This document shows, one piece after another, positions 1 through 15,145 of a stretch of DNA of 23,076 nt (its first letter is position 1; every line of letters begins with the position of its first letter). The notes beneath the pieces were generated by a model that saw only the letters and a program-made list of their open reading frames with translations, was not told where the DNA came from and ran no database searches. The position numbers were made by a program, and so were the translations under genes. The stretch comes from a phage. The DNA lies in the NCBI GenBank assembly GCA_025289735.1, contig GCA_025289735.1_4764.2; one strand, 5' to 3'.

Positions 1-676
1 TATTTGTTTCGGCTTTTAATTGAGATATTTCTTTACACTCTTTAACTACTTTAACAAATAATGCTCTTGCTTTTGTGGCGTCAATAACAAGTAGTTTCTT
101 GTACGCCTTCATTTTAACACTATAAGTTTGCCAAATCAAGTCTTTGGCTACCTTGTCGTGTTCGTCGATTATATTTAGAAAGCTATCTAACAACATAAAC
201 GACTCAAACGATATAATCCGATTTTGCAGTAGTTTAAAGATACCGCTAGTTTCGGTTGCGGGATTGTATGTAATTAGCTCTTTAAGAGTAACCCCTCGTT
301 TCTCTGAGAAGTATACCAGACTTTTAATGTCATCGTCAAATCGTGTTGCTGCATCGGTTATCTTTCCTATGTATTCCATATAAAAGCCGTATGCGTCAAC
401 ATCAGTGATTTCACCTACCCATGCATCGGTATTAGCTACCAGATTGCTTAGGAATAGGAAGTATAATTCTCTTAGATTGTACTTTTCCGCTAATTTCGCG
501 AAATAATACTTATCTCTGCGTTTATTGAATGCGGCATCAGATAACCGCATCCTCCAATTGTATTTTACGCAATCATAACGCCCGTTCATGTGAGCTTTCA
601 TCATGCAATATAACATATACACAGATTTAGCATTAATTCGCATATCTGGATCTGGAGGAAGACGGTTTCTGATCAT
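1..676 (-). CDS. 59: DNA helicase loader gp59 (partial; C-terminal end runs off the window start)
   Basis: Manual minus-strand translation from ATG at 676..674 gives MIRNRLPPDPDMRINAKSVYMLYCMMKAHMNGRYDCVKYNWRMRLSDAAFNKRRDKYYF..., closely matching T4 gp59 as recalled (KSVYKLYLMIKQHMNGKYDVIKYNW..SDAAYQKRRDKYFF). Reading frame is still open at position 1. Absent from the ORF track because it is truncated. Confidence 0.8.
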   Translation of the reverse strand, partial: MIRNRLPPDPDMRINAKSVYMLYCMMKAHMNGRYDCVKYNWRMRLSDAAFNKRRDKYYFAKLAEKYNLRELYFLFLSNLVANTDAWVGEITDVDAYGFYMEYIGKITDAATRFDDDIKSLVYFSEKRGVTLKELITYNPATETSGIFKLLQNRIISFESFMLLDSFLNIIDEHDKVAKDLIWQTYSVKMKAYKKLLVIDATKARALFVKVVKECKEISQLKAETN

Positions 677-685
677 ACATACCCC

Positions 686-955
686 TTAAATATCGAGAGT
701 GTTGGTCGGTTCGTCGATCACTCCCTTCCTGAGTGTTCTATTTACTATACATTCTTGTGTGATCTTGTCAATAATGGACACCGGAATATACTTCTGATAG
801 TGACCATATTCGATAGAGTTTTCCTCTACAAACTGAGTGGTCGCTTCAAGATAAGTCAATCCCTCTTCAACAACCAGTTTTTCGATTGCAAGACCGTTTG
901 CTGTTTTATTCGCGGCTTTTACCGCATGTTCATTAAGCATTGAACACCCGATCAT
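686..955 (-). CDS. 33: late promoter transcription accessory protein gp33
   Basis: 89-aa ORF; segment IEKLVVEEGLTYLEATTQFVEENSI resembles T4 gp33 (IEKMVEEFGMSYLEATTAFLEENSI). Synteny 59-33-dsbA-rnh as in T4. True start may differ; the ORF is shorter at the N-terminus than T4 gp33. Confidence 0.75.
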   Translation of the reverse strand: MIGCSMLNEHAVKAANKTANGLAIEKLVVEEGLTYLEATTQFVEENSIEYGHYQKYIPVSIIDKITQECIVNRTLRKGVIDEPTNTLDI

Positions 956-1208
956 AGAGTTCTACCGCTTCGTCGCGTTCTGCTTCGAAGGTTTCGCGCT
1001 GTTGCTGGTGATACAGTTTAAACAGAATGCCCCACATTTTACCATCTACGCCTAATTCTTCTTTAGCACGCTGTTTGATCTCTTTGATCTTATCGCCATA
1101 TGCTTCTTGAATGGTTTTCTGATCGCTGGCTTCTTTAATCAGTTGTGCCAGGGTATTTCCGTGTACATTTTCATCGAATACTACTTTTTCTTTTTTCTGT
1201 TCAGTCAT
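933..1208 (-). CDS. dsbA: DsbA-like double-stranded DNA binding protein (late transcription enhancer)
   Basis: 91-aa ORF between the gp33-like and rnh-like genes, the position dsbA occupies in T4. Size and charged helical character fit; sequence identity to T4 DsbA not verified residue by residue. Confidence 0.6.
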   Translation of the reverse strand: MTEQKKEKVVFDENVHGNTLAQLIKEASDQKTIQEAYGDKIKEIKQRAKEELGVDGKMWGILFKLYHQQQRETFEAERDEAVELYDRVFNA

Positions 1209-1213
1209 AATAT

Positions 1214-1810
1214 TTAACCCTCTTTCGTCATTAATTGAAAACCACGTTCAGCTTTTGAGATTTCGCTAGGACTTAAATCGTCACCCACATATTCTAGCAT
1301 CATTTCTCGGATAATGTCAAGTGCTTTTTCATCACCTGATTTTAACTCGAACTCAAGTTCATAGTGAGCCTCTCCCATTCTTTCGCCGACTTTGCAATAA
1401 TAGAAAGTGTCTTTGCACATTTCCACTATACCACAACCCATATCTAGAGTCAATGACTTGCGGTATGTCATGACTTGCAGTAAAGGAACGATAAGGTCGG
1501 AGTTTACGCCTAGACTATCAACATAATGATAGAAATCATCCATTGTTGAAAAAGTAATTTCTTCTCGGTTGAAGAGTCCAGATTCACTATCACCTATTTT
1601 GACCATGATCAATGATCTATTAACGTCAAGTCGAGCATAAATTCCTTTTCGACGCAGTGCATGATCTTCTGTATCATAATAAAATTCGTGTTTTAGTGTG
1701 TTAGCATGATCTACTAGATTGTACCCGTCATACATTGCTACCCACAAATCACAGATTGTTTCGACGCCAATTTGTGAGTGTGCATAGTATTTTAATTCAA
1801 GTTCTTTCAT
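1214..1810 (-). CDS. CYTH-domain protein (class IV adenylate cyclase / triphosphatase-like), hypothetical
   Basis: 198 aa. N-terminal ELELK (ExExK-type motif), central FYYDTEDHALRRKGIYARLDVNR (YYDT...R.R pattern) and C-terminal YELEFELK acidic strand resemble the CYTH triphosphate-tunnel fold. Lies between dsbA and rnh, which I recall as adjacent in T4. Confidence 0.5.
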   Translation of the reverse strand: MKELELKYYAHSQIGVETICDLWVAMYDGYNLVDHANTLKHEFYYDTEDHALRRKGIYARLDVNRSLIMVKIGDSESGLFNREEITFSTMDDFYHYVDSLGVNSDLIVPLLQVMTYRKSLTLDMGCGIVEMCKDTFYYCKVGERMGEAHYELEFELKSGDEKALDIIREMMLEYVGDDLSPSEISKAERGFQLMTKEG

Positions 1811-1820
1811 GTGTCAACCC

Positions 1821-2768
1821 TTAGAACTCACCAATTTTCTGCAACATTTTAACTAACGCATTTGTTACAAAATAGTTATAAATTTTACCGCGTGGTGCTG
1901 GTTTAGATTTTTCCCATGCTAACAAAATTTCATATTCGATGTTATCAGGAATAAATTCAAAATCAATAAGTTCGCGGTTTTCGTCAAAGCGTCGTGCTTC
2001 TTCCTCTGTCATCAAAGACTTTGGATCTTCGGCATCGAAAATTTGCTCTAACCATTTGGTTGCAATTGGTTTAGCTCGTTCTCCTTCCAGTCGTGAGATA
2101 ATGAAATCACTACGGCACTTGATCGAAGCTACACCGTCTTTTGCGTCACCCTTAACACATTTTACCATCAGGTCTTTGTAAGGGCTACCATATTTGCATT
2201 TCTTCCACGCTTTCTGTACTGGCGCCCACTGTTTCACGTTTTTGTATTTGTGCAACTGTGTGTAGTCACCATCGCCGGAGTTGATTAGCACCTGACGACC
2301 TTCTACAGAAAACTTTTTAGTTAATACAGCGATTATATCATCCGCTTCAACTTTGTCAACCTTAATAACGTGATAAGGCATGTTCTCTTTAAACTCTTCG
2401 GTGATCTTATTGATCGCAGCAAAGATCATCTCCCAATCACGCGGATCTGCGTCTCGTTTTTCCTTACGGTTGCGTTTATAGTAAGGGGCGATATCACGTC
2501 GCCAGTAACCTTTACTTGAATCAAAGGCAAGTACCGTAATAGGGTATTGCTCTTTGAATTTTGTCATATTATAACGCATGGTGTCAAGGATAAGATGACG
2601 GATCATGCCTTCATTAATAGGATCTTCCGGTTTAAAGGTATGCGAGATAGTAGCAATCATAAGCTGCGACATATCAATCAAATGCACACCTTCCGGTAGT
2701 TTATCTTCTGGATCATCAAAGAAATCATTAAGTGTAGCGGTAGTTTTTGTAAACGGGTTATATGTCAT
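1821..2768 (-). CDS. rnh: RNase H / 5'-3' exonuclease (FEN-1 family)
   Basis: 315 aa; strong similarity to T4 RNase H as recalled (GYWRRD, YYK.NR, MPY, EADD.IAVL.KKFS.EG, DGD.TQLHKY.NVKQW, RSDF..R.EGER, IDF..IPDNI, PRGKIY.YFV). Confidence 0.9.
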   Translation of the reverse strand: MTYNPFTKTTATLNDFFDDPEDKLPEGVHLIDMSQLMIATISHTFKPEDPINEGMIRHLILDTMRYNMTKFKEQYPITVLAFDSSKGYWRRDIAPYYKRNRKEKRDADPRDWEMIFAAINKITEEFKENMPYHVIKVDKVEADDIIAVLTKKFSVEGRQVLINSGDGDYTQLHKYKNVKQWAPVQKAWKKCKYGSPYKDLMVKCVKGDAKDGVASIKCRSDFIISRLEGERAKPIATKWLEQIFDAEDPKSLMTEEEARRFDENRELIDFEFIPDNIEYEILLAWEKSKPAPRGKIYNYFVTNALVKMLQKIGEF

Positions 2769-2770
2769 AA

Positions 2771-2956
2771 TTAAGTTCTCTCCACTCTCACAACAACATA
2801 TTCGCCAAACGAGCTAGATACTTCACGATCATACCCGTACTTCTCCATAACTCGCAGAATTGCATTGTTTAGTTCTGCGCGAAAATAATTATAATCCTTA
2901 TCAGGTATTCTGTCAACTATCCATTTTGCACCGTCTGACAAATCAACTTTAACCAT
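2771..2956 (-). CDS. hypothetical small protein (61 aa)
   Basis: ORF immediately upstream of rnh on the minus strand, with AAGAGGA Shine-Dalgarno about 9 nt before its ATG. No recognised homolog. Confidence 0.5.
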   Translation of the reverse strand: MVKVDLSDGAKWIVDRIPDKDYNYFRAELNNAILRVMEKYGYDREVSSSFGEYVVVRVERT

Positions 2957-2994
2957 AATATATCATCCTCTTTTGTTTCTATCAAGCCTCATTT

Positions 2995-3002
2995 TATAAA
3001 TA
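2995..3002 (+). promoter_or_regulatory. T4-type late promoter (TATAAATA) for gene 34
   Basis: Exact TATAAATA about 28 nt upstream of the gp34 ATG, followed by AAGGAG RBS. Matches the gp55/gp33-dependent late promoter consensus. Confidence 0.65.
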
Positions 3003-3030
3003 TGAACATACTATAAAAGGAGACCCAATA

Positions 3031-6000
3031 ATGGCAGATTTTTCTCAACATTTCAAGGCCACATTTGGCTTTGACGCTGGTAATGAAAAGGTCGTCAATG
3101 TAGCATTGGCTGATAAGAATGTCAACACCGATGCGGTCAACGTTGAATTTTTCAATTACCATAATGGTATTACTCAGTATGACACAACTCGCGGTTATGA
3201 TCAATACGGCACTACAATCTATCAAAACCGTCCGTATTATGCAAAAGAAGATATCGCAAAACCAGCAGGTGACTTTGACCCGACTAAATGGCAAGCACTG
3301 CGCACGGACCCACGTTGGGATTATGTTGCAGCAACTTCCGGCGATACTCCTTTAAAGTCCGGTGACTATATCGCAGCGGACTGTCAGTTTGCAAACTTGA
3401 CATTCTCAATGCCTACTAATCCTGTAGAGGGCGACACTATAACAGTAAAAGATATCGGTGGCAAGTGCGGTGTTAATGAGTTATCGTTCCTTTCGGTTGG
3501 TCATGAGTTCTATCATAATGGTGTGGTAAACAACCGCAAATGGTACTGTACTACCCCTTATGCAATGAACTACTTCATTTTTGTTCGCAATCGCTGGCAC
3601 GTTTACCAGACGGGAACGGAGCCACGCGGGGTATATGCACAACCATCTATCGACCCGATCCAGATGCAAAACGGTGATCAGGTATTTCGTCGTAGTTCGT
3701 TGGGTAATATTACCTTAGTGCTTCCTAAGTTTGCCAACAATGGCGACATGATCCAGACTACAGACCTTGACGGATTAACCGCAACCAACCACGTTACGGT
3801 TAAAGTTCATGAGCACGCAGAAGAACAATCAATTGGCACGTCCGGTCTAAAAGAGATTATCGGTAAGCGTAGCGGTCATGGTATATTCATCTTTGACAAG
3901 ACGGAAAACTTATGGCGTTTGTGGGATGGTGATCAGTCTGTTCGTCTTAAACCGATCATCGATGACACTCGCTTATCCCCTAATAGCTATGTTGCAGTAT
4001 TTGGTGATCGTGATGTTACCTTGACTTTACCGACCAATGTCGAGTCGGGTGATCGCATTCAAGTTTCTATGCAGTATATGCACGGAAACCAGACTTGCCG
4101 AATCATTACCTCAGAAGAGGATACAAAAATCCTTATGCAGAAAAACATGGTTCAGTTTCCTAAGCGTAGCGAGTACCCATTCAATGGGACCGATACATGG
4201 ACGGGAGTGTCTGAATTGTCTTTCAACGCTGCAAATGATTATGTACCTTATCTGGAGTTCTCTTATTCAGAAGGTGATGATGGTAAGAAATACTGGCTGG
4301 TGGCACATGCTCACCCGATTGTAGAACGAGTAGATCCGACTCGTAAAGATCGTGTTGGTGTTATTGCGCTTGCTACCCAAGATGAAACAAACAAAAACCA
4401 TGAAGATAATCCTAGCGACGAAGTTGCGGTGACTCCAAAGGTTCTGGCTAACAAAACAGCCAACGAAACTCGACGCGGTATTGCTCGCATTGCAACTCAA
4501 GCGGAAACGCATCAAGATACTGGTTCCAGCTTCCTGGATGATGTTATCGTTACACCTAAAAAGTTAAATGACTGTGTTGCTACCGAAGACCGTCGTGGTG
4601 TGATGGAAATTGCAACTCAACATGAAACCAACGAAGGTTTAGACGATACTCGCGCAATCACTCCTAAGAAGTTAGAAGAGCGTCGAGCGTCAGAGGATCT
4701 TGCTGGTATCGCTGAAATTGTTCAGGTAGGCGGTAGTGCTGCCGCTCGACGTGGCGAAGCTGGTACAGGGATCTATAACATCAACGACCATGCTAAAATC
4801 GTTACTCCGCAAAACATCAACGAAGTTAAGGCGACCGAAACTTCCCGTGGTGTTGGGTATCTGGCAACTGACGCGGAAGTGCAAGGGGCTACAGAATCAA
4901 CCCCGCAAGATGCTTTACTAATCACGACTCGCACGCTAACGAAACGTACTGCTACCGAATCGCGTACTGGTATCGCTGAAATTGCAACTCAGGAAGAAAC
5001 AAACTTAGGTCAAAGTGATAACCATATCATCACGCCTAAAAAGCTGCATACTCGCCGCGCAACGGAAACTTTACATGGTTTAGCAGAAATTGCAACTCAA
5101 GAAGAGTTTGACGCAGGTCGTGACGATGCTCGCATTTCTACCCCATTGAAGATTAAAACCTTCTTTGAGAATGCACAGCGTTTGAAAGTAGACCCGACTC
5201 AGGGGCTTAACCTTACGGGTGACTTGTGGCAAGGTATCATGATCAGCGGTCTTGATGCAACCGAAGACACAAAAGGTGTCGCTAAAGTTGCTACTACTCA
5301 GCTTACGGATGTTGGTCAAGATGATACTACAATCATCACTCCTAAAAAGCTGCAAGGCAAAAAGGCCACCGAAGGTAAAGAAGGTATTATCCGAGTTGGT
5401 ACTCAAGCCGAAACCGTGGCTGGTGCACTGGCTAATGTAGCAATTTCTCCGAAGAACTTCAAATATGTTGTTCAGACAGAGGATACATGGAAAGCAACCG
5501 AAGCGCGTCGTGGTTTCTTGAAAGTTGCTACTCAGGAAAACTGTTTTGTTGGTGATAATCTGCAAGGTTCTACTCAAGAACTAGGAAACTACCAGCATGA
5601 CGGAATTGCTGTTACCCCGAAAGGATTAAACTACGCACTTGCTAATTTCTTACCTAAGATGGCAACCGCTCAGAATAGTTTGAAATTGGGTAACGTAGAG
5701 GCCGCTAAATGGGCGCGTAGAGACATTGACCAGACCATAGAGAGCAATTACACGTTTAATAAAAAAGTTAACGTGAAGGGCGATTTAGAGTGCTTAAAAT
5801 CAGGTTCCTTTGAAACTCTGTCTGTGACTAAGAACTCGACCGATGTTCCGAGTAATGGTCATCTGGTGTTGGGTGAGCGTGGAGTTGACGGTCACACCGG
5901 AATTACTCTGCATGGCACAACCGCATCGGAAGGCATGAAAAACTCTTGGTCTATTATCGTTGGTGGTACGGGAACAGCGCAAGTTGTTGATAGTGATGCT

Positions 6001-6771
6001 ATCGCTTTCGGTAAAATCAATGATGGTGGAGTCGTTGAGCATTACGCCTTTGCTATGAAACACAATGGCGACGCGACAGCATATAGAGACTTTATTGCAG
6101 GTCGTAACCTGTATGCGAAACAAGGCGGTTTATACATTGTTGACCAGTCTAATCCGGCAATGACTCGTTCCCCAGATGGTATGCTGAATATCGGTCACGG
6201 TGGAAGTGTTAACATCAAGGCAGGTCATCAAACGTTAACTACAGAGATCGCCGGACAGAAATATCAGATCGTACACGCAGGAAACGCTGACGAAGTTCTT
6301 AACCGTCAGTTTGTTAAGAATGCTGGCGATACAATGGTCGGTAAGCTGACTATGGATAATGCGCCTATTGTTTCTGTTAAGCATGAAGCTAGCGCGGCAA
6401 CCGCTCCGGCAATCAGCAACATCGGTTTCTGGAATATGCGCGTTACTACCCAGAACATCAAAGAAACTTATCCAGAGAAGAAAAACGGTACTCTGATGCA
6501 ATGGGGTACTGACGCGGACGGGCTTACCCAGCTTTGGTCCCCCGATGGTACTCATAAACATTATATCCGTTCCGGTACTGGTGGTCAATGGACCGCATGG
6601 GGTGAAATTTACACCAAACAGAATAAGCCTACCGCTCAGGAAATCGGGGCAGTAGTTGCAGAAGGTGGTTTAATGAACTCTATGACGGTTCGTGATTGGA
6701 TCAAAGTTGGTAATGTTAAAATCATCGCCAATAATCTGACTCGTACCGTAGATTTTATCTGGGAAGACTAA
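3031..6771 (+). CDS. 34: long tail fiber proximal subunit gp34
   Basis: 1246 aa (T4 gp34 is about 1289 aa). Shared motifs include VNVALAD, PKPAG.F, W.ALRTD, GD.I...DIGGK.GVN, LWRL.DGD, QFPKRSEYP, ELSFN...YVP.LEF, the repeated ITPKKL...ATE..G.AEIATQ units and C-terminal RD.I.VGNV.I. Confidence 0.9.
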   Translation: MADFSQHFKATFGFDAGNEKVVNVALADKNVNTDAVNVEFFNYHNGITQYDTTRGYDQYGTTIYQNRPYYAKEDIAKPAGDFDPTKWQALRTDPRWDYVAATSGDTPLKSGDYIAADCQFANLTFSMPTNPVEGDTITVKDIGGKCGVNELSFLSVGHEFYHNGVVNNRKWYCTTPYAMNYFIFVRNRWHVYQTGTEPRGVYAQPSIDPIQMQNGDQVFRRSSLGNITLVLPKFANNGDMIQTTDLDGLTATNHVTVKVHEHAEEQSIGTSGLKEIIGKRSGHGIFIFDKTENLWRLWDGDQSVRLKPIIDDTRLSPNSYVAVFGDRDVTLTLPTNVESGDRIQVSMQYMHGNQTCRIITSEEDTKILMQKNMVQFPKRSEYPFNGTDTWTGVSELSFNAANDYVPYLEFSYSEGDDGKKYWLVAHAHPIVERVDPTRKDRVGVIALATQDETNKNHEDNPSDEVAVTPKVLANKTANETRRGIARIATQAETHQDTGSSFLDDVIVTPKKLNDCVATEDRRGVMEIATQHETNEGLDDTRAITPKKLEERRASEDLAGIAEIVQVGGSAAARRGEAGTGIYNINDHAKIVTPQNINEVKATETSRGVGYLATDAEVQGATESTPQDALLITTRTLTKRTATESRTGIAEIATQEETNLGQSDNHIITPKKLHTRRATETLHGLAEIATQEEFDAGRDDARISTPLKIKTFFENAQRLKVDPTQGLNLTGDLWQGIMISGLDATEDTKGVAKVATTQLTDVGQDDTTIITPKKLQGKKATEGKEGIIRVGTQAETVAGALANVAISPKNFKYVVQTEDTWKATEARRGFLKVATQENCFVGDNLQGSTQELGNYQHDGIAVTPKGLNYALANFLPKMATAQNSLKLGNVEAAKWARRDIDQTIESNYTFNKKVNVKGDLECLKSGSFETLSVTKNSTDVPSNGHLVLGERGVDGHTGITLHGTTASEGMKNSWSIIVGGTGTAQVVDSDAIAFGKINDGGVVEHYAFAMKHNGDATAYRDFIAGRNLYAKQGGLYIVDQSNPAMTRSPDGMLNIGHGGSVNIKAGHQTLTTEIAGQKYQIVHAGNADEVLNRQFVKNAGDTMVGKLTMDNAPIVSVKHEASAATAPAISNIGFWNMRVTTQNIKETYPEKKNGTLMQWGTDADGLTQLWSPDGTHKHYIRSGTGGQWTAWGEIYTKQNKPTAQEIGAVVAEGGLMNSMTVRDWIKVGNVKIIANNLTRTVDFIWED
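4369..5566 (+). repeat. intragenic tandem degenerate repeats within gp34
   Basis: At least seven copies of the unit TPKKL-(x)-ATE-(x)-G-(x)-EIATQ-E are visible in the translation. Boundaries approximate. Confidence 0.7.
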
Positions 6772-6776
6772 TTAAA

Positions 6777-6792
6777 GGGGGCGAAAGCCCCC
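6777..6792 (+). other. intercistronic stem-loop (GGGGGC-GAAA-GCCCCC) between genes 34 and 35
   Basis: Perfect 6-bp GC stem with GAAA tetraloop directly after the gp34 stop; no downstream T-run, so probably an mRNA stability or processing element rather than a terminator. Confidence 0.5.
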
Positions 6793-6804
6793 TATGGGGT
6801 TATT

Positions 6805-7944
6805 ATGACACAAGAGATAGAATTACGCAACACTGGAGTTAGGTTTGCGCATTTCGACGAAGACTCTGCGACATTTACAAGCATTTCAGAAAACAACTCT
6901 GTGATGTATAAGCTGGAAGTTCGCGGATCTAATGCGGATTCTACCAAACCAGCAAGGATTAGATTTAATGGAGTGGAGATCGTTGGCACTGGCTATGAAA
7001 ATGGCCTAAATTTTAAAGTTCTTACTCCAACTGGACAACTACACGAAGAAAAGGTATTCTATGGTCGCGGTGCTGTATTGGCAATGCGTGATTATCTTTC
7101 TTTGCTGAAAGGTGACTATATCATTGCGATGGCAACGCATGGAGAATTGTTTGCAGATCCGATAAGTGATGTTGTATTTTCTAAGATGGGATCTGTATCA
7201 TTCCCGAATCACATTTTGTTACAGCAAATGCCTCGTGTATCCTATGCAGCAATTTATTCTACTAAAATGGGTAAAATTGTGTGCGAAGGGATGCAAGCAA
7301 CGCACGGGGAAGGTCAAGATTCGTCTATACAGATCGAGAAAGTTTATGATACTATAGACGATCTTGCAATAACAGGAACACCACAACGATTTTTAGATTA
7401 TCCGGTTGAATATGTTAGCGAAGATGCCGAACATTTCGAGCTAATACAATGGCCTCATGATGAGATCAGCGCACCACTTGAGGATTTTAACATAAAGTCA
7501 GGTGACAAACTATCAATATCCTTTGAATTGTTCCGTGATAGTGCCGCAGCCGCAGCCAACGTAACAGCGCGTTTCTATCACAACTACTTCACTGATGGAC
7601 AATATCAAACTGGCGTTCGTTATAATGCCAGCCAGAAAGATCAATGGGAAAAGTTTGAAACCGTCTATACCGTACCGGAAGGAGTTGATAGTGTTACCAC
7701 TGGTTGTATCAGATATCCAACCAACTCCAACGAAGGTATTGTTAAAATTAGAAACATACTAATAACGCCGATCAGTGGAGTCGTCAAAACTACTGGTCCT
7801 ACTTCATTTGGTGTTAATGGTGTTAGAACAACTCATATTCAGGATAACGGTGATTTTACTAACCCTGTAATGAGTCTTCTTAAACTGCCTAGAGATAATA
7901 AACACATCACATCCAACAACTTTAAAGAGTTCGATGTTGATTAA
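6805..7944 (+). CDS. 35: probable long tail fiber hinge protein gp35
   Basis: 379 aa (T4 gp35 about 372 aa), immediately downstream of gp34 with no separate promoter. Assignment by synteny and size; sequence similarity not confirmed from memory. Confidence 0.5.
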   Translation: MTQEIELRNTGVRFAHFDEDSATFTSISENNSVMYKLEVRGSNADSTKPARIRFNGVEIVGTGYENGLNFKVLTPTGQLHEEKVFYGRGAVLAMRDYLSLLKGDYIIAMATHGELFADPISDVVFSKMGSVSFPNHILLQQMPRVSYAAIYSTKMGKIVCEGMQATHGEGQDSSIQIEKVYDTIDDLAITGTPQRFLDYPVEYVSEDAEHFELIQWPHDEISAPLEDFNIKSGDKLSISFELFRDSAAAAANVTARFYHNYFTDGQYQTGVRYNASQKDQWEKFETVYTVPEGVDSVTTGCIRYPTNSNEGIVKIRNILITPISGVVKTTGPTSFGVNGVRTTHIQDNGDFTNPVMSLLKLPRDNKHITSNNFKEFDVD

Positions 7945-7955
7945 CATTTTTAACA

Positions 7956-7986
7956 AGCCGATCCTCGTGGTCGGCTTTATTTTTAT
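7956..7986 (+). terminator. rho-independent terminator after gene 35
   Basis: AGCCGATCCTCGTGGTCGGCT hairpin followed by TTTATTTTTAT. Confidence 0.7.
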
Positions 7987-8125
7987 ACAGTTGGTTAAAA
8001 CATAACCAAAACGAAGAAAGATCTTTAGAATAATAAAAATTTGTTTCGGTTAAAAAGTAGTCAGTGCCTACGGCACGTCGCAAAGCGACAATTGTTAATA
8101 AATATTTTCATTTGAGGAATCAGTA

Positions 8126-8716
8126 ATGTCTAATCTCTTTAACTATGCTAACCCTAGCAACTGGCAGATCAATATTCCAGATGGACAACTAACAAAAGGC
8201 TTTACTTTAAATGCTCAAGGTGTTACACTTCCTGCTATAACCATTCCACCGACTAAACAAGTTGCTGGTCAATATGGTTTGGCGGTTGCTGATTATCCGT
8301 CTAGTCATGTAGAGTTTGACCCGCTGGTAGTCCGGTTTATTGTCGATGAGCATTTGGAAAGTTATCTAAACCTTTACACATGGATGCTTTCTATAGTAGA
8401 CTACAATAACGGTAACTCCACTGCGTGGAAGGATTCAATGCCGGAAGCCGTTCAAGTTCACATGATGGACAACGAACGACGTAACATTGTGTGCACTTTT
8501 AACTTTTATGGTTGTTGGTGTTCACAATTGGGGGAACTTGAGTTAACATACACCGATGATATGCATGAATCTCTGGTGTGTACTGCAATTCTTCCCTTTA
8601 AAACAATGAGCATTGAACGTGATGGTCAACTGATCGTTCCTCGCCCAGCAATTCAGGCGGCGGATCGTCAGAGGGTGGAAGGTATTAAAGCTATGCACCC
8701 TGCTTTTAGAAAGTAA
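8126..8716 (+). CDS. hypothetical protein, probable late/structural (unassigned)
   Basis: 196 aa with GAGGA RBS. Sits between gp35 and gene 1. Not similar to T4 gp36 as I recall it. Weak resemblance to tail-tube-fold proteins (gp19-like W..GELEL segment) is uncertain. Confidence 0.55.
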   Translation: MSNLFNYANPSNWQINIPDGQLTKGFTLNAQGVTLPAITIPPTKQVAGQYGLAVADYPSSHVEFDPLVVRFIVDEHLESYLNLYTWMLSIVDYNNGNSTAWKDSMPEAVQVHMMDNERRNIVCTFNFYGCWCSQLGELELTYTDDMHESLVCTAILPFKTMSIERDGQLIVPRPAIQAADRQRVEGIKAMHPAFRK

Positions 8717-8731
8717 TAAGAGGCTTATATA

Positions 8732-9388
8732 ATGAAATTGATTGCACTTTGTGGTAAAAAGCGAGTAGGAAAAGACACTGCCGCGTTAATCATTGATGGA
8801 CATAGTTATCAACTGGCAGCACCGATCAAAGAAATATTGTGCGAATGTCAACCAGACTTAGGTCTGACTTATCTTGACTTTGACGGGTTAGGGCGTGACA
8901 GAGAATCCGATCTAGGTATTGATACCTATACCGCGCATAAGTGGTTTATTCAGTGTCTGCTTATGCTAGATTCGAAGTATGGCGGTAGTTCCTTTACTTG
9001 TGATCGTCTGGCTGAGATTTACAAGGTCGTTAATGAGATTGGCGAAAAACATAATAACGTCTGGTCTATTCGTCTCATGTTAACCACTCTCGGTACTGAT
9101 ATAATGGTTAACTTGATCAATCCGCTTTATTGGTGTAATCTCTTCGTTAATGAGTTTATGAAGCGCAAAAATGAAGAAGGTTATTTTGTAGTGGTTGATG
9201 TGCGTCAGCCTATTGAAATTGCTCTCGTGCGTGCTATGGGTGCTAAGGTGTTGCATATTCAGCGTGATACTGGTATTGTATCGACTCACTCCACCGAAAA
9301 AGGAATTTTGCCTATTGACGGTGAAACAGTTATCATAAATAATGGCACATTAGAAGAATTTGAAAGCGCGATTCTCGCGAACATTTAA
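8732..9388 (+). CDS. 1: deoxynucleoside monophosphate kinase
   Basis: 218 aa; clear similarity to T4 gp1: MKLI.L.G.KR.GKDT, YQLA.PIK, DRE.DLG, WSIR.LM..LGTD..VN, ARAMGA.V.HI.R, THSTE.G.LPI.DG..VI.N.G.LEE. Confidence 0.9.
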   Translation: MKLIALCGKKRVGKDTAALIIDGHSYQLAAPIKEILCECQPDLGLTYLDFDGLGRDRESDLGIDTYTAHKWFIQCLLMLDSKYGGSSFTCDRLAEIYKVVNEIGEKHNNVWSIRLMLTTLGTDIMVNLINPLYWCNLFVNEFMKRKNEEGYFVVVDVRQPIEIALVRAMGAKVLHIQRDTGIVSTHSTEKGILPIDGETVIINNGTLEEFESAILANI

Positions 9389-9414
9389 TAAAAAGTTATC
9401 AACAAGTAGGAGAT

Positions 9415-9681
9415 GTGAATATGTCCAATCAACATGAACAAATGATTAATGTCCTGAAAGTACGTCTGTTTGACACTCAAGAAAAGGCCGCATTCTTAGA
9501 AGGCCAACTGAAAGATCGTGAGCGTGTATTGATGGAACTGGTACGCATTCTGGGTATTCAGCCAGACGAAAACGGGACTGTTTCCCTTGATGCTATCGTC
9601 GAAGAAGTGAAAGCACTTCTCCCTAAAGACGAAGCCGCAGAAGCCGCAGAAGAGGAAGTAGAACTGATCACGGAGGCTTGA
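9415..9681 (+). CDS. 57A: gp57A-like tail fiber assembly chaperone (small acidic coiled-coil protein)
   Basis: 88 aa, acidic, heptad-like, between gene 1 and the 57B-like gene; size and neighbourhood match T4 57A. Sequence-level match not verified. Confidence 0.5.
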   Translation: MNMSNQHEQMINVLKVRLFDTQEKAAFLEGQLKDRERVLMELVRILGIQPDENGTVSLDAIVEEVKALLPKDEAAEAAEEEVELITEA

Positions 9682-9683
9682 TT

Positions 9684-10148
9684 ATGACCCCGTTTAGAGA
9701 ATCCGTTAAAGGTACATATGCGGCGGTTAAATTCACTGAGGATACACTAGACCGCATTGAAAAATTGCAGGAGTTCTACGATCTTCCTAATGCCGTTCCT
9801 CGTGATAAACTGCATAGCACTATCTTATATTCTCGTGTCTATGTTCCGTTTATCCCAGAAGAAGGGGAGAAGTTCTTAGGCTCTCTGTGTCATCTGAAAG
9901 TGTTTGAAACACAATCCGGTACTAATGCGCTTGTGCTGGCATTTGAAAGCGACTACATGCAATTCAGACACGATATCGGCACTGCTTTAGGTGCGACGTG
10001 GGATTATCCTGAATATGTACCGCATATCACGCTTTCTTATGATGTTGGTGCGCGTAAATTTGGCACTGACCTAGAGTTCGATTTAGAGATTGTCCGATCT
10101 CATGAGTATGTCGAAGATCTAGACCTGGAGTGGACGACCAAACTGTAA
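9684..10148 (+). CDS. acb1: 2H phosphoesterase, 57B/Acb1-like (anti-CBASS cyclic-oligonucleotide phosphodiesterase candidate)
   Basis: 154 aa from ATG at 9684 (the track start 9678 is TTG; GGAGG RBS 7 nt upstream of 9684). Two H-x-T-x motifs (HSTILY, HITLSY) typical of 2H phosphoesterases; T4 57B/Acb1 is about 152 aa and adjacent to 57A and gene 1. Confidence 0.65.
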   Translation: MTPFRESVKGTYAAVKFTEDTLDRIEKLQEFYDLPNAVPRDKLHSTILYSRVYVPFIPEEGEKFLGSLCHLKVFETQSGTNALVLAFESDYMQFRHDIGTALGATWDYPEYVPHITLSYDVGARKFGTDLEFDLEIVRSHEYVEDLDLEWTTKL

Positions 10149-10155
10149 TTCTATA

Positions 10156-10187
10156 CCCCGAAAAATTTTTCGGGGTTTTTTGTTTTT
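10156..10187 (+). terminator. rho-independent terminator
   Basis: CCCCGAAAAATTTTTCGGGG palindrome followed by TTTTTTGTTTTT. Confidence 0.8.
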
Positions 10188-10192
10188 AGGTG

Positions 10193-10221
10193 TTGACAAC
10201 CATAAACGACTATAGCATAAT
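10193..10221 (+). promoter_or_regulatory. early sigma70-type promoter module copy 1 (TTGACA-17-CATAAT)
   Basis: TTGACA at 10193-10198, CATAAT at 10216-10221, then leader ATCGAAACGAAACAC and AGGAG RBS before the ATG at 10260. Confidence 0.7.
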
Positions 10222-10259
10222 GCACATATCGAAACGAAACACACTTAGGAGAATCAAAA

Positions 10260-10634
10260 ATGATGATGTTTAAAGATAAATTCGAATGTCACTACACCCG
10301 TAACTTTGACTTAGTATCCCGCTACTACATTCATAAAGAAACTGGCACGCAAGTAGTTCTTGAATCTCACAGCGAAGTAGGATTCGATTCAACAAAAGTA
10401 GCAATTAGTGCTCGCTTCTGGGATAACGGCAAATTTGCTTATATCGCTTGGAACGACGACGAAAATGTAATTACAGTAGCTTTCGGTGATGACTACTACA
10501 CTAAAAAGACTTTTGATAGCAAGCCATCAAATGAATATCTGAAAGCGTATGTTCAGCACATGTTCCAACGTGTTCTGACCGGAATGGAAATCAATGTCAT
10601 GAAAGACATTGTAGACGAAGTAAAATATTCTTAA
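10260..10634 (+). CDS. hypothetical protein (124 aa)
   Basis: ORF with promoter and RBS directly upstream; no recognised homolog. Confidence 0.7.
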   Translation: MMMFKDKFECHYTRNFDLVSRYYIHKETGTQVVLESHSEVGFDSTKVAISARFWDNGKFAYIAWNDDENVITVAFGDDYYTKKTFDSKPSNEYLKAYVQHMFQRVLTGMEINVMKDIVDEVKYS

Positions 10635-10640
10635 AAATAG

Positions 10641-10669
10641 TTGACAACATGAAACGGGGGTAGTAAGAT
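10641..10669 (+). promoter_or_regulatory. early promoter module copy 2 (TTGACA-17-TAAGAT) with inverted repeat over the -10
   Basis: TTGACA 10641-10646; GGGGGTA (10656-10662) / TACCCCC (10669-10675) inverted repeat flanks the -10; leader CAAACGAAAGGAG. Near-identical to the module at 19448. Confidence 0.65.
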
Positions 10670-10700
10670 ACCCCCACAAACAAACGAAAGGAGAATCAAA

Positions 10701-10859
10701 ATGAAATTTATCGGTAAAACTTTTATGTTCGTAGCTGGTACTCTGTTTACTGCAACTCTGTTAGCTGGTGGCTTAGATATCTTTACTGCCTTTGAAACTT
10801 TCGGGTATACTGTAGCATCGGGTGCTCTCTTCGGATTGGGTTTAGCGATTAGCAAATAA
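10701..10859 (+). CDS. small hydrophobic membrane peptide (52 aa)
   Basis: ATG 7 nt after AGGAG, immediately behind promoter copy 2; translation MKFIGKTFMFVAGTLFTATLLAGGLDIFTAFETFGYTVASGALFGLGLAISK. Below the 60-aa cutoff of the ORF track. Confidence 0.6.
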   Translation: MKFIGKTFMFVAGTLFTATLLAGGLDIFTAFETFGYTVASGALFGLGLAISK

Positions 10860-10868
10860 GGTGATAAT

Positions 10869-11072
10869 ATGGAATTTGATATGGTTAAAGCAAAATTTAT
10901 GGGTAAGGATAAGAGCGGTAAAACATTTGTTATTAATAGAACATTGTTTCGCTCTGACCTTAAGTGGGTAACACAACAATTTGCGGAAGTCAACGAGGCA
11001 GTTGTGACATGCTTCGTTGATGATAAAAAAGTTTTTGAAATTGATCGTCGTGGGGTGTCTAATGATCACTAA
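10869..11072 (+). CDS. hypothetical protein (67 aa)
   Basis: ORF with GGTGA RBS; first gene of a translationally coupled chain. Confidence 0.55.
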   Translation: MEFDMVKAKFMGKDKSGKTFVINRTLFRSDLKWVTQQFAEVNEAVVTCFVDDKKVFEIDRRGVSNDH

Positions 11073-11259
11073 ACTGTTTAGTAATACTTTGTTTCTGATT
11101 GCATTTGTTTTCTTTCTGTGTCTGATGATCGGTGTTGTTACAGTTGGTAGCTATTCCGGTATTACCTTAGATGATTTTTGCAAACTTGTTTTGATCTCGT
11201 TTATACCTAGTATTCTGCTCGCTTTATGTGGTGCTTTTAAATGGCTTTGTACGCTATGA
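11062..11259 (+). CDS. small membrane protein (65 aa)
   Basis: ATG at 11062 overlaps the upstream stop; hydrophobic, two predicted TM helices. The track start 11017 is probably too far upstream. Confidence 0.55.
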   Translation: MITKLFSNTLFLIAFVFFLCLMIGVVTVGSYSGITLDDFCKLVLISFIPSILLALCGAFKWLCTL

Positions 11260-11366
11260 ACGAAATAGAACGAATGATGTTGATAGGTGGACCGGAGTTC
11301 ACTAAATTTGATGCAATTCTTATTGCGTTGGGTTTTCTTATGATCTGTTGTATGGTGGCGCTATGA
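11256..11366 (+). CDS. possible micro-protein (36 aa, hydrophobic)
   Basis: ATG at 11256 overlaps the upstream stop (ATGA); its own stop overlaps the next ATG at 11363. Manual translation MNEIERMMLIGGPEFTKFDAILIALGFLMICCMVAL. Confidence 0.35.
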   Translation: MNEIERMMLIGGPEFTKFDAILIALGFLMICCMVAL

Positions 11367-11587
11367 GTAGCATAAAATATTTTGCTTTCTTGTGTTTTAT
11401 GATGTTCTTCACATTCTTAGCATGTGTTTTCTTTACCTGGCTTGCTCATGTTGATAATGCAACCGGACCGTTTTACTTCTTCTGTGTATTGTCTGTGTTG
11501 ACTGGTGCTCTTGTTACGTGGATGATTCGAGATTGTTACGGAATGTATAAGTTTGAAAAGACTCGACCGAAATGGGGCAAACGATGA
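11363..11587 (+). CDS. small membrane protein (74 aa)
   Basis: Hydrophobic ORF, ATG at 11363 (track start 11348 is TTG). Confidence 0.55.
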   Translation: MSSIKYFAFLCFMMFFTFLACVFFTWLAHVDNATGPFYFFCVLSVLTGALVTWMIRDCYGMYKFEKTRPKWGKR

Positions 11588-11766
11588 AATTATTTGCATG
11601 GCTAATTATTTTAAATGTAATTGTTAAGACCTTTCTCGCTGGTCTGATGATGGCGCATAGCACCGAACCAGAAGAAGCATTAACGTATTTTGTTGCTTAT
11701 GTGTTGGGATTCTTGCTTACTGCGTGGATGTGTGATGAATATCGAAGAATTGAGGTAAAACCATGA
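11584..11766 (+). CDS. small membrane protein (60 aa)
   Basis: ATG at 11584 overlapping the upstream stop (ATGA); hydrophobic. Confidence 0.5.
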   Translation: MKLFAWLIILNVIVKTFLAGLMMAHSTEPEEALTYFVAYVLGFLLTAWMCDEYRRIEVKP

Positions 11767-11981
11767 AAATGACTTTTTATATCTTAGCAAGTATCATGCT
11801 TGTGATCTCTTCTGCCTTATTTGCATTTCTTACCGTTTGGGGGATCTGTACTGATGCGAAGCCGTGGGATATCGTAGAAAATACGGTTATGTTTATTATT
11901 AGTGTCATGTGTCTTTTTGATGCATTTAACTCTATCAAGGAAGAAGATCAAAAACGTCGCGAGAGAAAGCGATATAAATAA
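11763..11981 (+). CDS. small membrane protein (72 aa) with basic C-terminal tail
   Basis: Start overlaps the upstream stop; two hydrophobic segments then KEEDQKRRERKRYK. Confidence 0.55.
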   Translation: MKMTFYILASIMLVISSALFAFLTVWGICTDAKPWDIVENTVMFIISVMCLFDAFNSIKEEDQKRRERKRYK

Positions 11982-12132
11982 TAGTGAACTAAAGACAGCG
12001 CGGTTAGAATGATTTGGACGTCACCTAGCCGCATTTATTACAGCGTATGTGGGCTATCCGGTACGCTAAAGCATTCACTTGCTAGGCCGCTAGCAGGTTG
12101 GAGACAAGGAAGATTCGCTACCTTCCCTATAA

Positions 12133-12156
12133 GCCACTCTTCGGAGTGGCTTTTTT
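12133..12156 (+). terminator. rho-independent terminator (UUCG tetraloop)
   Basis: GCCACTC-TTCG-GAGTGGC followed by TTTTTT. Confidence 0.8.
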
Positions 12157-12184
12157 ATTGCCTAAAATTTTTTTAAAAAAGTTG

Positions 12185-12213
12185 TTGACACCAGATCCGG
12201 CCTATAGCATAAT
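12185..12213 (+). promoter_or_regulatory. early promoter module copy 3 (TTGACA-17-CATAAT)
   Basis: TTGACA 12185-12190, CATAAT 12208-12213, preceded by an A/T tract (12161-12180), followed by leader ATCGAAACGAAACACAC. Confidence 0.7.
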
Positions 12214-12259
12214 ACACCCATCGAAACGAAACACACTTTCTTAAACGGAGAATCAAATT

Positions 12260-12445
12260 ATGGCACGTCGCATCACTAAAGCACTGAAAGCAGTAAGCAA
12301 AGAAAACGTAGTAGCTATTCTGGTAATCTGGGGTTATAACGAAGAATCCGCTAAACAGAAAGTTGAAGCAGGGTTTGAACTGGCAGTAAAAGCAATGCCT
12401 AATGATGACTCTGTAGGACTGGCAAACTATATTGCATATTTCTGA
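12260..12445 (+). CDS. hypothetical protein (61 aa)
   Basis: ORF behind promoter copy 3 with GGAGAA RBS. Confidence 0.6.
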   Translation: MARRITKALKAVSKENVVAILVIWGYNEESAKQKVEAGFELAVKAMPNDDSVGLANYIAYF

Positions 12446-12453
12446 TAAAAGTG

Positions 12454-12482
12454 TTGACAGGGGAGGATAACTCCCCTACAAT
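12454..12482 (+). promoter_or_regulatory. early promoter module copy 4 (TTGACA-17-TACAAT) with spacer palindrome
   Basis: TTGACA 12454-12459, TACAAT 12477-12482; GGGGAG/CTCCCC inverted repeat (12460-12476) in the spacer; leader ATCAACGAAACGGGAGG. Confidence 0.65.
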
Positions 12483-12511
12483 ACAACCATCAACGAAACG
12501 GGAGGACCAAA

Positions 12512-12733
12512 ATGATTAACTTTAAAGACGCAGCAAAAGAAATTATCGACTTTGAGCGTGAACTGTTTGAGATGGAACCAAATATGAGTAAACTGGAATT
12601 GGCTAACCAGATCTGGTGCTCTAAGATGAATCCATCCGACCGCTTAGAAGTTATGAACATCGTAGGCGAAGTGAAAGGTAGTGCATTAATGAAACTCCGC
12701 GCTTGTCACGCTTACATCGCTGATCAACTATAA
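12512..12733 (+). CDS. hypothetical protein (73 aa)
   Basis: ORF behind promoter copy 4. Confidence 0.6.
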   Translation: MINFKDAAKEIIDFERELFEMEPNMSKLELANQIWCSKMNPSDRLEVMNIVGEVKGSALMKLRACHAYIADQL

Positions 12734-12742
12734 GGGGGTAAT

Positions 12743-12937
12743 ATGGGGGATAAACCATTAGTACAACTAAGAGTACGCTATAACCAGATTTTAGCATTAC
12801 TTAAAGCTGAGGGTGTAGACCCATCGGACCGCGAGGCTGTAAAAGCGTGTCTATCTGATACGGTACAACCAAAACATAACTATGCTTGTTATATGTACTT
12901 TTACAATAGGATGAATAGACCGTTTGAGTTTGAATAA
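12743..12937 (+). CDS. hypothetical protein (64 aa)
   Basis: ORF with AAGGGGG RBS. Confidence 0.55.
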   Translation: MGDKPLVQLRVRYNQILALLKAEGVDPSDREAVKACLSDTVQPKHNYACYMYFYNRMNRPFEFE

Positions 12938-12959
12938 CGTTAAGTGTTGAGGTGATACT

Positions 12960-13148
12960 ATGGAAGACCAAATTGAACAATTACGCGAATCCGCTAAAGA
13001 GCATGGTATGAGCGAAGGATTTGTTGAATGGTTTATCTCTAAAAAGGTTGATTCCTGCGGGTGCTTTAACTTCCTTACTATGTCCATTATGTGGGAAGGT
13101 TGGAAAGGTGCTGTAGAAACTGCCTTAAAAATTTTGAAAAAAGACTAA
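12960..13148 (+). CDS. hypothetical protein (62 aa)
   Basis: ORF with GAGGTGA RBS. Confidence 0.5.
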   Translation: MEDQIEQLRESAKEHGMSEGFVEWFISKKVDSCGCFNFLTMSIMWEGWKGAVETALKILKKD

Positions 13149-13156
13149 AAAAGTTG

Positions 13157-13185
13157 TTGACACGCGATAGGGTGTATAGCATAAT
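13157..13185 (+). promoter_or_regulatory. early promoter module copy 5 (TTGACA-17-CATAAT) inside an 11-bp perfect inverted repeat
   Basis: TTGACA 13157-13162, CATAAT 13180-13185; GATAGGGTGTA (13166-13176) and TACACCCTATC (13186-13196) form a perfect inverted repeat around the -10; leader CGAAACGAAACACGAA and AAGGAG RBS. Confidence 0.7.
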
Positions 13186-13228
13186 ACACCCTATCGAAAC
13201 GAAACACGAACTACTAAGGAGTATCAAA

Positions 13229-13555
13229 ATGAAACCAGTATCTGTTAAAGTTATCTTCTCTGAATCTTCTGTATTCGCTAAAGCAAACGAAGTATTCCAC
13301 TTCGAAGACTTCGAGCGTAAAGCACAGGACGCGGCAGCAAAAGCCTATGAAAGCGAATATGACAAAACTCAAATCGAGGTTACTTTCGAAAACGGCACTA
13401 CTTACGCTTGCCGCCTTGACCTGGGTGATCGTCTGTCTGGCTTCCGTCACCATGTAGAGAAGACAATCGCTTTCTCTAAAACCGAAAAAGGAAAACACTA
13501 CTTTTCTGTTTTCGGTACTAAAAATCTGGATTTCTTGAAAACTGTTTCTTTCTAA
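13229..13555 (+). CDS. hypothetical protein (108 aa)
   Basis: ATG at 13229 sits 8 nt after AAGGAG, behind promoter copy 5. The track entry 13091..13555 has an over-extended N-terminus that would cross the promoter. Confidence 0.65.
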   Translation: MKPVSVKVIFSESSVFAKANEVFHFEDFERKAQDAAAKAYESEYDKTQIEVTFENGTTYACRLDLGDRLSGFRHHVEKTIAFSKTEKGKHYFSVFGTKNLDFLKTVSF

Positions 13556-13563
13556 GGTATATT

Positions 13564-13746
13564 ATGAAAAAGATTAATTGGTTAGCGAACATAGGCGCGG
13601 TCTGCGCCTTTAACATCCTCGGATGGATAATGTTACATTTTGATGAGCGAGTTTCAAAATGTGAGGGTGCATTGATTCTCGGATCTGCTAGCATATTCAT
13701 TATGCTGTATGCAATTGCTGTTGACTTAAGCCGCGAGGATTGTTAA
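13564..13746 (+). CDS. small membrane protein (60 aa)
   Basis: Two hydrophobic segments. Confidence 0.5.
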   Translation: MKKINWLANIGAVCAFNILGWIMLHFDERVSKCEGALILGSASIFIMLYAIAVDLSREDC

Positions 13747-13747
13747 T

Positions 13748-13942
13748 ATGAATATTACTAATACTGCCATCGGATTTTCGAGCGCCTTTGCTAGTTTCTT
13801 TGCGCTGGTCTGTATGTTTGTTTTTATTCCTGTTGTATATCTTGGATATTGTGATATTGAAATTGCATTGATTGCTGGGATCTATATGTGGGTTGCGGTC
13901 TTTGTTCTTTCTGTTATAATGTGCAAGATTATTGACCATTGA
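13748..13942 (+). CDS. small membrane protein (64 aa)
   Basis: Strongly hydrophobic, two predicted TM helices. Confidence 0.5.
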   Translation: MNITNTAIGFSSAFASFFALVCMFVFIPVVYLGYCDIEIALIAGIYMWVAVFVLSVIMCKIIDH

Positions 13943-13964
13943 TTAACTATGTGAGGATTATATT

Positions 13965-14285
13965 ATGAGCAAACTGTTTGAAACTCCGCGTGAAATTCTG
14001 ATTGACAAGCTGAAAGAACGTGGTTTTAAAATCAAAGATGCAACCAAATATAGTCGAATTGATGAAATTAAGTTGCATTCTCTTGATGAACTGGTAGAAT
14101 ATGTTGCGGCGGTGGCTGATCCGCAGTTTGATGTGATTGTAGGTGACGTTGAATATCTCGATAATGTATATTCATTCTTCACTTATGGTAAAATTGTGTC
14201 TGTGAAAATATCATTCTGTGAAAATGTGGAGGTGCTTGCTAGTGAACCAGAAAAACCAACTGACAACGGTCCTACGGCAGCGTAA
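13965..14285 (+). CDS. hypothetical protein (106 aa)
   Basis: ORF with GAGGA RBS. Confidence 0.55.
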   Translation: MSKLFETPREILIDKLKERGFKIKDATKYSRIDEIKLHSLDELVEYVAAVADPQFDVIVGDVEYLDNVYSFFTYGKIVSVKISFCENVEVLASEPEKPTDNGPTAA

Positions 14286-14556
14286 CAAGGAAGACCGTCT
14301 GATTTATGCGCTGGCGGTTATCCTTGAAAAAGAATTACCGGATCTTGATGTAGTTTTTACTGACCGACCAGTAGGCCAACGTTACGGAGGATATGACAGC
14401 CTAGTTTATCCATCATATAGCATTGAAATGTGGGTAGAAGATTTTAAAAACTTGGCTGATACATCTAAACCGCTTTATTTGTGGGATGTTGAGTATAATT
14501 GCGATCCTAACTGGCCTGGCATTAATGTTTATGCGTCTATGACTTTAAAGGTGTGA
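14224..14556 (+). CDS. hypothetical protein (about 105-110 aa)
   Basis: Overlaps the end of the preceding ORF in another frame. Start uncertain: ATG 14224 or GTG 14242 (GGAGG RBS at 14229-14233). Confidence 0.5.
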   Translation: MWRCLLVNQKNQLTTVLRQRNKEDRLIYALAVILEKELPDLDVVFTDRPVGQRYGGYDSLVYPSYSIEMWVEDFKNLADTSKPLYLWDVEYNCDPNWPGINVYASMTLKV

Positions 14557-14558
14557 TA

Positions 14559-14717
14559 ATGGTTGAACAAATGTTAACTTCAATGGTAATGGCTTTCTGT
14601 GTGGGTGTTGTTCTGTTTGCGATGATTCCAAAAGACCGAATGAATCTGCTTGTTGCTGTGTGTTTGGGTGTGGTTAGCGGTTGGTGTGGAATCGTTCTAG
14701 AACACGCTCTGCGATGA
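14559..14717 (+). CDS. small membrane peptide (52 aa)
   Basis: ATG at 14559 just after the upstream stop; manual translation MVEQMLTSMVMAFCVGVVLFAMIPKDRMNLLVAVCLGVVSGWCGIVLEHALR. Confidence 0.45.
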   Translation: MVEQMLTSMVMAFCVGVVLFAMIPKDRMNLLVAVCLGVVSGWCGIVLEHALR

Positions 14718-14725
14718 TTAACAAT

Positions 14726-14750
14726 GCGGGTAGGGTAATGTACTACCCGC
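14726..14750 (+). other. stable stem-loop (GCGGGTAG / CTACCCGC), no T-run
   Basis: 8-bp perfect stem with 9-nt loop between the small ORFs and the membrane-protein/endolysin cluster. Confidence 0.5.
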
Positions 14751-15143: not shown

Positions 15144-15145
15144 CA

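Follow-up and report, generated by a model that had tools for sequence, protein, structure and literature searches.

Introduction

Modular shuffling at short intergenic repeats has been described in RB49 and phi1, where the repeats are promoter-early stem-loop (PeSL) cassettes (Arbiol et al. 2010, PMC2839356; Comeau et al. 2014, PMC4122927). Inversion breakpoints beside tail-fibre genes are known from Mu and P1, whose invertible G and C segments (acted on by Gin and Cin, respectively) are about 3-4 kb long. Among T4-type phages, the order of the core genes is generally regarded as highly stable. Here we describe a stretch of phage DNA 23,076 nucleotides (nt) long (GenBank assembly GCA_025289735.1, contig GCA_025289735.1_4764.2), which we call the window, in which gene 35, encoding a long tail fibre protein, is joined to gene 3, encoding the tail tube terminator, across an intergenic repeat that we call R1. 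On balance we favor the reading that this 35|3 join is one end of a large, R1-mediated genome inversion that is real in phage DNA.

R1 resembles the PeSL cassettes in that both are short intergenic repeats, found in the same genus, that act as recombination substrates reshuffling gene order. Unlike a PeSL, R1 has no sigma70-type -35/-10 promoter, lies beside late genes, and occurs in only two full copies that are inverted relative to each other. The outcomes differ as well, with a half-genome inversion proposed for R1 and local insertion, deletion, or mini-circle formation for PeSLs. True PeSLs (TTGACA-N17-TAnAnT around a G+C-rich hairpin) are found elsewhere in the window and at a second breakpoint of the related phage LF73P4 considered below. 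The window is like the Mu and P1 systems in having its breakpoint beside tail-fibre genes, but the segment implied here is approximately 87 kb, no alternative fibre C-termini are exchanged, and the coding sequences are unchanged. A Pfam scan of the nine open reading frames (ORFs) flanking the junction found no resolvase/invertase domain of the kind present in serine invertases.

Results

The window joins two distant blocks of a Krischvirus genome

Megablast comparisons assigned the window to the T4-type coliphage genus Krischvirus, with 96-99% nucleotide identity to RB49, JSE, phi1, and their relatives. When aligned to JSE (NC_012740) the window fell into two collinear blocks. Positions 1-8098 aligned to 144.4-152.5 kb of JSE on the plus strand and positions 7991-23076 aligned on the minus strand from 65,561 down to approximately 50,480 (65.56-50.48 kb). 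They have 108 bp in common, at 7991-8098, and this overlap is R1. In the canonical arrangement, the genes are ordered rnh|34-35-R1-36-37-38-t at one locus and 4-2-hyp-R1-3-1-57A-57B at the other, whereas the window reads 35-R1-3. Compared with RB49 (NC_005066), JSE, and phi1, the window is unchanged in gene content and local gene order inside each block, and those genomes have R1 at both loci; rnh is the divergent left neighbor of gene 34 in the window, T4, and JSE alike. The 35-R1-3 join thus implies that the segment of about 87 kb between the R1 copies is inverted relative to canonical Krischvirus genomes.

An initial annotation, made from the letters of the window alone, had listed genes 34 and 35, a terminator, an ORF of 196 amino acids (aa), and genes 1, 57A, and 57B, without genes 36, 37, or 38. 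Our six-frame ORF listing and profile searches against PHROG and Pfam agree with this order. As that annotation pointed out, the order is unlike the 34-35-36-37-38 cluster of T4, and we found that it is equally unlike canonical Krischvirus genomes, where 36-37-38 come after 35. We detected no homologs of gp36, gp37, or gp38 within the 23-kb window, which is explained by the collinearity of positions 7991-23076 with the early-gene region of JSE (65.56 down to 50.48 kb).

Alignment across the junction showed a left flank of the gene 35 type, then R1, then a right flank of the gene 3 type, with zero extra bases and nothing gained or lost. The hairpin and T-run that follow gene 35 are identical in the 35-36 spacer of JSE and are the final sequence particular to the 35-side flank. 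On the other side of R1, the late-promoter-like sequence AATAAATA is identical in the canonical hyp-3 spacer. No gene is broken at the junction. Both AATAAATA and the ribosome-binding site (RBS) lie to the right of R1 and move with gene 3, just as the TATAAATA of gene 36 moves with gene 36. Judging from its sequence, AATAAATA probably functions as a promoter, and the TATAAATA motif at 2995-3002 is likewise a putative promoter of gene 34. Because the breakpoints are intergenic and upstream of the late promoter of each gene, promoter-gene pairs are kept intact and a phage with this arrangement should stay viable.

Canonical genomes encode 35 and 3 on opposite strands. In the window the strand flips at the junction, which rules out a simple deletion. 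We rejected loss of 36-38 as the cause of the 35|3 join on these grounds, since with opposite canonical strands only an inversion can place the two genes head-to-tail.

The 196-aa ORF encodes gp3

The initial annotation had left the 196-aa ORF unassigned and proposed, as one of two possibilities, that it encodes a highly diverged fibre or baseplate component. The protein can be assigned. Using phmmer, we found that residues 3-171 match residues 7-174 of the 176 residues of the solved T4 protein in PDB entry 9mkb_AC, annotated as "gp3, tube terminator protein" (E = 8.2e-47), and gp3 matches were also obtained to 9mof and 9x3p. BLASTP against T4 gp3 (NP_049753) gave 44% identity (E = 8e-56) in an alignment that is near full-length. 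The ORF also matched phrog_45, "tail tube" (4.9e-43), and the gp19-like family Pfam PF06841, Phage_T4_gp19 (31.4 bits versus a cut-off of 28.2 bits; 1.9e-7). Dozens of related phage records name this gene "tail completion and sheath stabilizer" or "tail tube terminator," and it is called gp3 in many Krischvirus records. Thus, the 196-aa ORF is the ortholog of T4 gp3, the tail tube terminator. It differs from its T4 counterpart in having approximately 20 extra C-terminal residues and in having gene 35, not gene 2, as its upstream neighbor.

No similarity to gp36 was found. The best BLASTP hit to JSE gp36 (496 aa) had an E-value of 4.3, and neither PHROG nor Pfam gave a gp36 match, so that the gp36 hit contemplated in the initial annotation did not appear. 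The PDB, PHROG, and Pfam matches together with this BLASTP comparison led us to reject a diverged fibre or baseplate protein.

Genes 1, 57A, and 57B were correctly placed after this ORF in the initial annotation, which did not recognize the series as the normal one. The order in T4 is 4-2-3-1-57A-57B and JSE likewise has 3-1-57A-57B, so the stretch of the window from the 196-aa ORF through 57B is wholly T4-like. This leaves the 35|3 join, which is sited on a repeat, as the sole anomaly.

R1 is an inverted repeat present at both loci in canonical genomes

JSE contains R1 at 152385-152500 on the plus strand and at 65451-65561 on the minus strand, so that the two copies are inverted relative to each other. 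One copy is located between the terminator of gene 35 and the late promoter of gene 36 and the other lies just upstream of the late-promoter-like sequence of gene 3. Comparison of the JSE genome with itself revealed 39 direct repeat pairs, many of them PeSL-like cassettes of the early region, versus only two inverted pairs, and R1 is the longer of these (110 bp, 93.6% identity). A degenerate third copy of the R1 type is present in JSE at about 102.1-102.3 kb (approximately 102130-102321). R1 was found at both loci in 59 of 59 Krischvirus records from a phage collection, and both loci were occupied in every canonical contig examined. In the window R1 marks the breakpoint and would be the homology substrate of the rearrangement.

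R1 folds better than shuffled controls (z = -3.3) and contains three small hairpins. Among 20 distinct copies the stems are invariant and the loops variable, with most substitutions located in hairpin loops or changing G-C to G-U pairs on the plus strand, and RNAalifold found no compensatory changes in the stems of these copies. This pattern hints at a possible structural role for R1. A search of Rfam returned nothing at E<=1 and R1 was therefore set aside as a known RNA family. Similarly, a promoter scan of positions 7800-8300 detected no sigma70-type promoter on the plus strand of R1 and, lacking such a promoter, R1 was rejected as a PeSL.

The same junction and its reciprocal are present in LF73P4

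Only one record, the unannotated genome of Krischvirus LF73P4 (OZ035795.1), covered the whole region in one piece, with 96.0% identity. LF73_P4 is a laboratory phage that forms plaques (bioRxiv 10.1101/2024.12.20.629700). Whole-genome comparison with JSE showed that LF73P4 has the identical 35|R1|3 junction at 56.74-56.86 kb and a reciprocal hyp|R1|36 junction at 141.39-141.50 kb (141390-141499), the latter followed by 36-37-38-t. Its gene set is complete, with nothing lost relative to JSE. Analogy with LF73P4, where 36-37-38-t lie approximately 85 kb away at the reciprocal junction, thus supports the other possibility raised in the initial annotation, a location of the distal fibre genes elsewhere in the genome. 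LF73P4 and the window are only about 96-98% identical, and at this level of identity they represent distinct genomes that share the junction. We found no published account of the LF73P4 rearrangement or of an R1 inversion in the searchable literature. The 35|3 arrangement is undescribed in the literature searched, yet it is already in one public record.

A second large rearrangement distinguishes LF73P4 from JSE, with breakpoints in a classical PeSL cassette (TTGACA, a G+C-rich stem-loop, and TATACT). These breakpoints are at approximately 37605-37690 and 83229-83313, corresponding to 44907-44991 and 126957-127044 in JSE. This second change reflects either reshuffling on a large scale mediated by PeSLs or another mis-join in the assembly. 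The gene order of LF73P4 can be derived in two ways, by two successive inversions, first at R1 and then at the PeSLs, or by excision of a circle at the PeSLs with its subsequent re-integration at R1. Because the window stops short of the PeSL breakpoints, it is the R1 junction alone that can be asserted for the window genome.

Other features of the window

The features around the junction are collected in Table 1. Within gp34, we observed diverged, internal, tandem-like repeats (window 4366-5407) with 60-75% identity and spacings that are multiples of 12 nt (for example, 108 and 120), in agreement with several matches of this protein to the collar-fibre family phrog_910. Relatives label the 198-aa ORF with the CYTH domain as hypothetical. 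The product of 57B matches the Acb1 family of anti-CBASS cyclic-nucleotide phosphodiesterases, and many records still call it "RNA ligase." Farther downstream are HNH/AP2-type homing endonuclease ORFs (16018-16593 and 17747-18277, plus strand) whose presence varies among relatives. The block at 15934-16577 is unmatched in LF73P4, and these ORFs look like the usual polymorphism of mobile endonucleases. PeSL-type repeats occur between small early ORFs at approximately 10210-10246, 10622-10704, 12174-12238, 13146-13207, and 19429-19511. Each has a stem-loop set within a sigma70-like promoter and, after it, an RBS, a layout known from RB49 and phi1.

Table 1. Features of the window, numbered from its first nucleotide.
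Feature	Position	Strand	Evidence and remarks
CYTH (triphosphate tunnel) domain ORF, 198 aa	1214-1810	-	Between dsbA and rnh; Pfam 1.1e-6, above cut-off
rnh (RNase H)	1821-2768	-	Pfam RNaseH_C 2.6e-37; JSE annotation
61-aa ORF	2771-2956	-	ORF listing
T4-type late promoter motif TATAAATA	2995-3002	+	Exact match; 29 nt upstream of gp34 ATG
Gene 34, long tail fibre proximal subunit, 1246 aa	3031-6771	+	phrog_972 E=0 along the full length; named gp34 in JSE and other records
Gene 35, long tail fibre proximal connector/hinge, 379 aa	6805-7944	+	phrog_1154 1.1e-126; gp35 in JSE
Intrinsic-terminator-like hairpin and T-run	7955-7987	+	9-bp stem with 5 G-C pairs, then TATTTTTATA; 3' of gene 35
R1 intergenic repeat, about 100-108 bp	7991-8098	+	Overlap between the two collinear blocks
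Late-promoter-like AATAAATA for gene 3	8097-8104	+	7/8 matches to TATAAATA; read from sequence
RBS GAGGAA of gene 3	8114-8119	+	After AATAAATA
Gene 3, tail tube terminator / tail completion and sheath stabilizer, 196 aa	8126-8716	+	PDB, BLASTP, PHROG, and Pfam matches
Gene 1, dNMP kinase, 218 aa	8732-9388	+	Pfam DNMK 9.1e-68; phrog_139
Gene 57A, tail fibre chaperone	9415-9681	+	phrog_1002 2.1e-26; Pfam GP57 2.3e-6
Gene 57B, Acb1-family 2H phosphodiesterase	9678-10148	+	Pfam Acb1 1.5e-51; phrog_755 1e-54

Discussion

In terms of mechanism, the 35|3 join reflects either commonplace rearrangement at a repeat or mis-joining at R1. In the case of a rearrangement, a single crossover between the inverted R1 copies would flip the segment between them, a distance of approximately 87 kb in JSE coordinates (65.56 to 152.39 kb). 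Such a flip would join 34-35 to 3-1-57A-57B, as the window reads, and would also join 4-2-hyp to 36-37-38-t beyond the window. The UvsX/UvsY recombination system of the phage is the presumed agent. We infer that the join exists in phage DNA, that it came about by homologous recombination, and that 36-38 are at the reciprocal junction in the window genome. By comparison with LF73P4, the missing genes are best explained as relocated to that junction, and neither loss nor replacement is needed.

Recombination in T4-type phages is very active. Within the genus of RB49 and phi1, repeat-mediated shuffling of PeSL cassettes is documented (PMC2839356). A chimera between samples is unlikely since contigs from one sequencing run, SRR21142043 (the probable source library), are 100% identical to positions 4074-7988 and 12464-19287 of the window, showing that both arms are present in that run. 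In this run, contig SRR21142043_428 of the Logan assemblies matches window 4074-7988 and then enters a Nextera adapter (CTGTCTCTTATACACATCT) 3 nt before R1, which identifies the library as Nextera but gives no linkage across the repeat.

Several observations weigh against a real inversion and bear on the possibility that the assembly is wrong, with a true order that is canonical (35-36-37-38 and 2-hyp-3-1) and incorrect flanks paired across a collapsed R1. Such an artefact is a serious possibility, although we hold it to be somewhat improbable. The breakpoints coincide exactly with the repeat, and the arrangement is rare. In the phage collection, 58 of the 59 Krischvirus records are canonical and one has 35|3. 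The canonical order was found in about 80 other assemblies, and the 35|3 junction was absent from both of the contigs from IMG/VR and metagenomes (one of each, both canonical), from 10 long contigs bearing an identical gp3, and from eight contigs running past close gp35 homologs. We also searched IMG/VR, JGI/ENA metagenomes, and contigs encoding identical or nearly identical gp3, gp35, gene 1, and neighboring proteins for further assemblies of the junction made independently, and every contig that covered the site was canonical. All R1 copies with both flanks are 35|36 or hyp|3 except those in the window and LF73P4. In addition, near the junction the window is 97.9% identical to LF73P4 versus up to 99.0% to canonical genomes. 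The junction is thus not obviously shared by descent and would require more than one origin. Around it the two genomes are not each other's nearest relatives, a pattern to be expected of independent errors. If both junctions are real, they probably had independent origins or their surroundings were later overwritten by recombination. The single-nucleotide polymorphisms in R1 do not distinguish recombination from mis-assembly, given that the diagnostic positions differ among strains; the copies in the window and LF73P4 are of the gene 3 type nearly throughout.

The assembly data themselves are mixed. Because R1 is at most about 108 bp long, it is shorter than typical Illumina reads of 150 bp, and far shorter than paired-end inserts, so that mainstream assemblers normally resolve it. 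By contrast, the two R1 copies of LF73P4 are identical over a stretch of about 88-90 nt, which exceeds common maximum k-mers such as 77, and the Logan contigs, assembled with k=31, always break at R1 or end in adapter. The SRR21142043 contigs are among these and are too short to link the two sides. The reciprocal junction in LF73P4 is not independent proof since a wrongly resolved inverted repeat gives the same pair of swapped junctions, and the second repeat-bounded rearrangement in that genome could mean that its assembly path is unreliable. Against an error, the RB49 record OZ035808, submitted in one series with LF73P4, has the canonical order, two different genomes share the junction, and viability is no ground for doubting the inverted form because genes and promoter-like sequences are intact. 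Taken together, we consider a real inversion at R1 to be the probable explanation.

Two further ideas give R1 a more active part. The sample could have held a mixed population of two genome isomers that interconvert at R1, with the assembly showing the majority or an arbitrary form. Recombination is very frequent in T4-type phages, R1 is the only substantial inverted repeat, and the presence of the junction in two genomes without a particularly close relationship fits recurrent events. However, frequent flipping should leave more of the roughly 80 assemblies inverted or broken at R1 and nearly all of them are canonical and contiguous, which makes this explanation highly improbable. It is slightly less improbable, but still quite unlikely, that R1 is a dedicated flip-flop site, such that Krischvirus genomes are interconvertible isomers in which the inverted R1 pair has been kept around the structural-gene half. 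This would be akin to the isomerization of herpesvirus or chloroplast genomes at inverted repeats. In that event, R1 might be recognized by a phage protein and, lying beside the 36-37-38 host-range module, could be a portable linker for exchange of distal fibre cassettes. Hardly credible is the proposal that the 196-aa ORF encodes a diverged distal-fibre or baseplate protein replacing gp36-38, or that 36-38 have been deleted. The only point for it is the absence of 36/37/38 from the 23-kb window. The ORF encodes gp3 (E = 8e-47, 44% identity) without gp36 similarity, the opposite canonical strands of 35 and 3 bar a head-to-tail join made by deletion, and LF73P4 keeps 36-38 with the same junction.

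These results dispose of a misleading lead, since there is neither a new fibre protein nor a missing fibre module, and gp3 is in its usual place by gene 1. If the junction is an artefact, then public Krischvirus assemblies, including LF73P4, can be mis-joined at R1, which matters for synteny-based annotation and taxonomy. If the inversion is real, a viable T4-type coliphage would have had half of its genome inverted via a previously undescribed repeat of the late region, distinct from the PeSLs of the early region.

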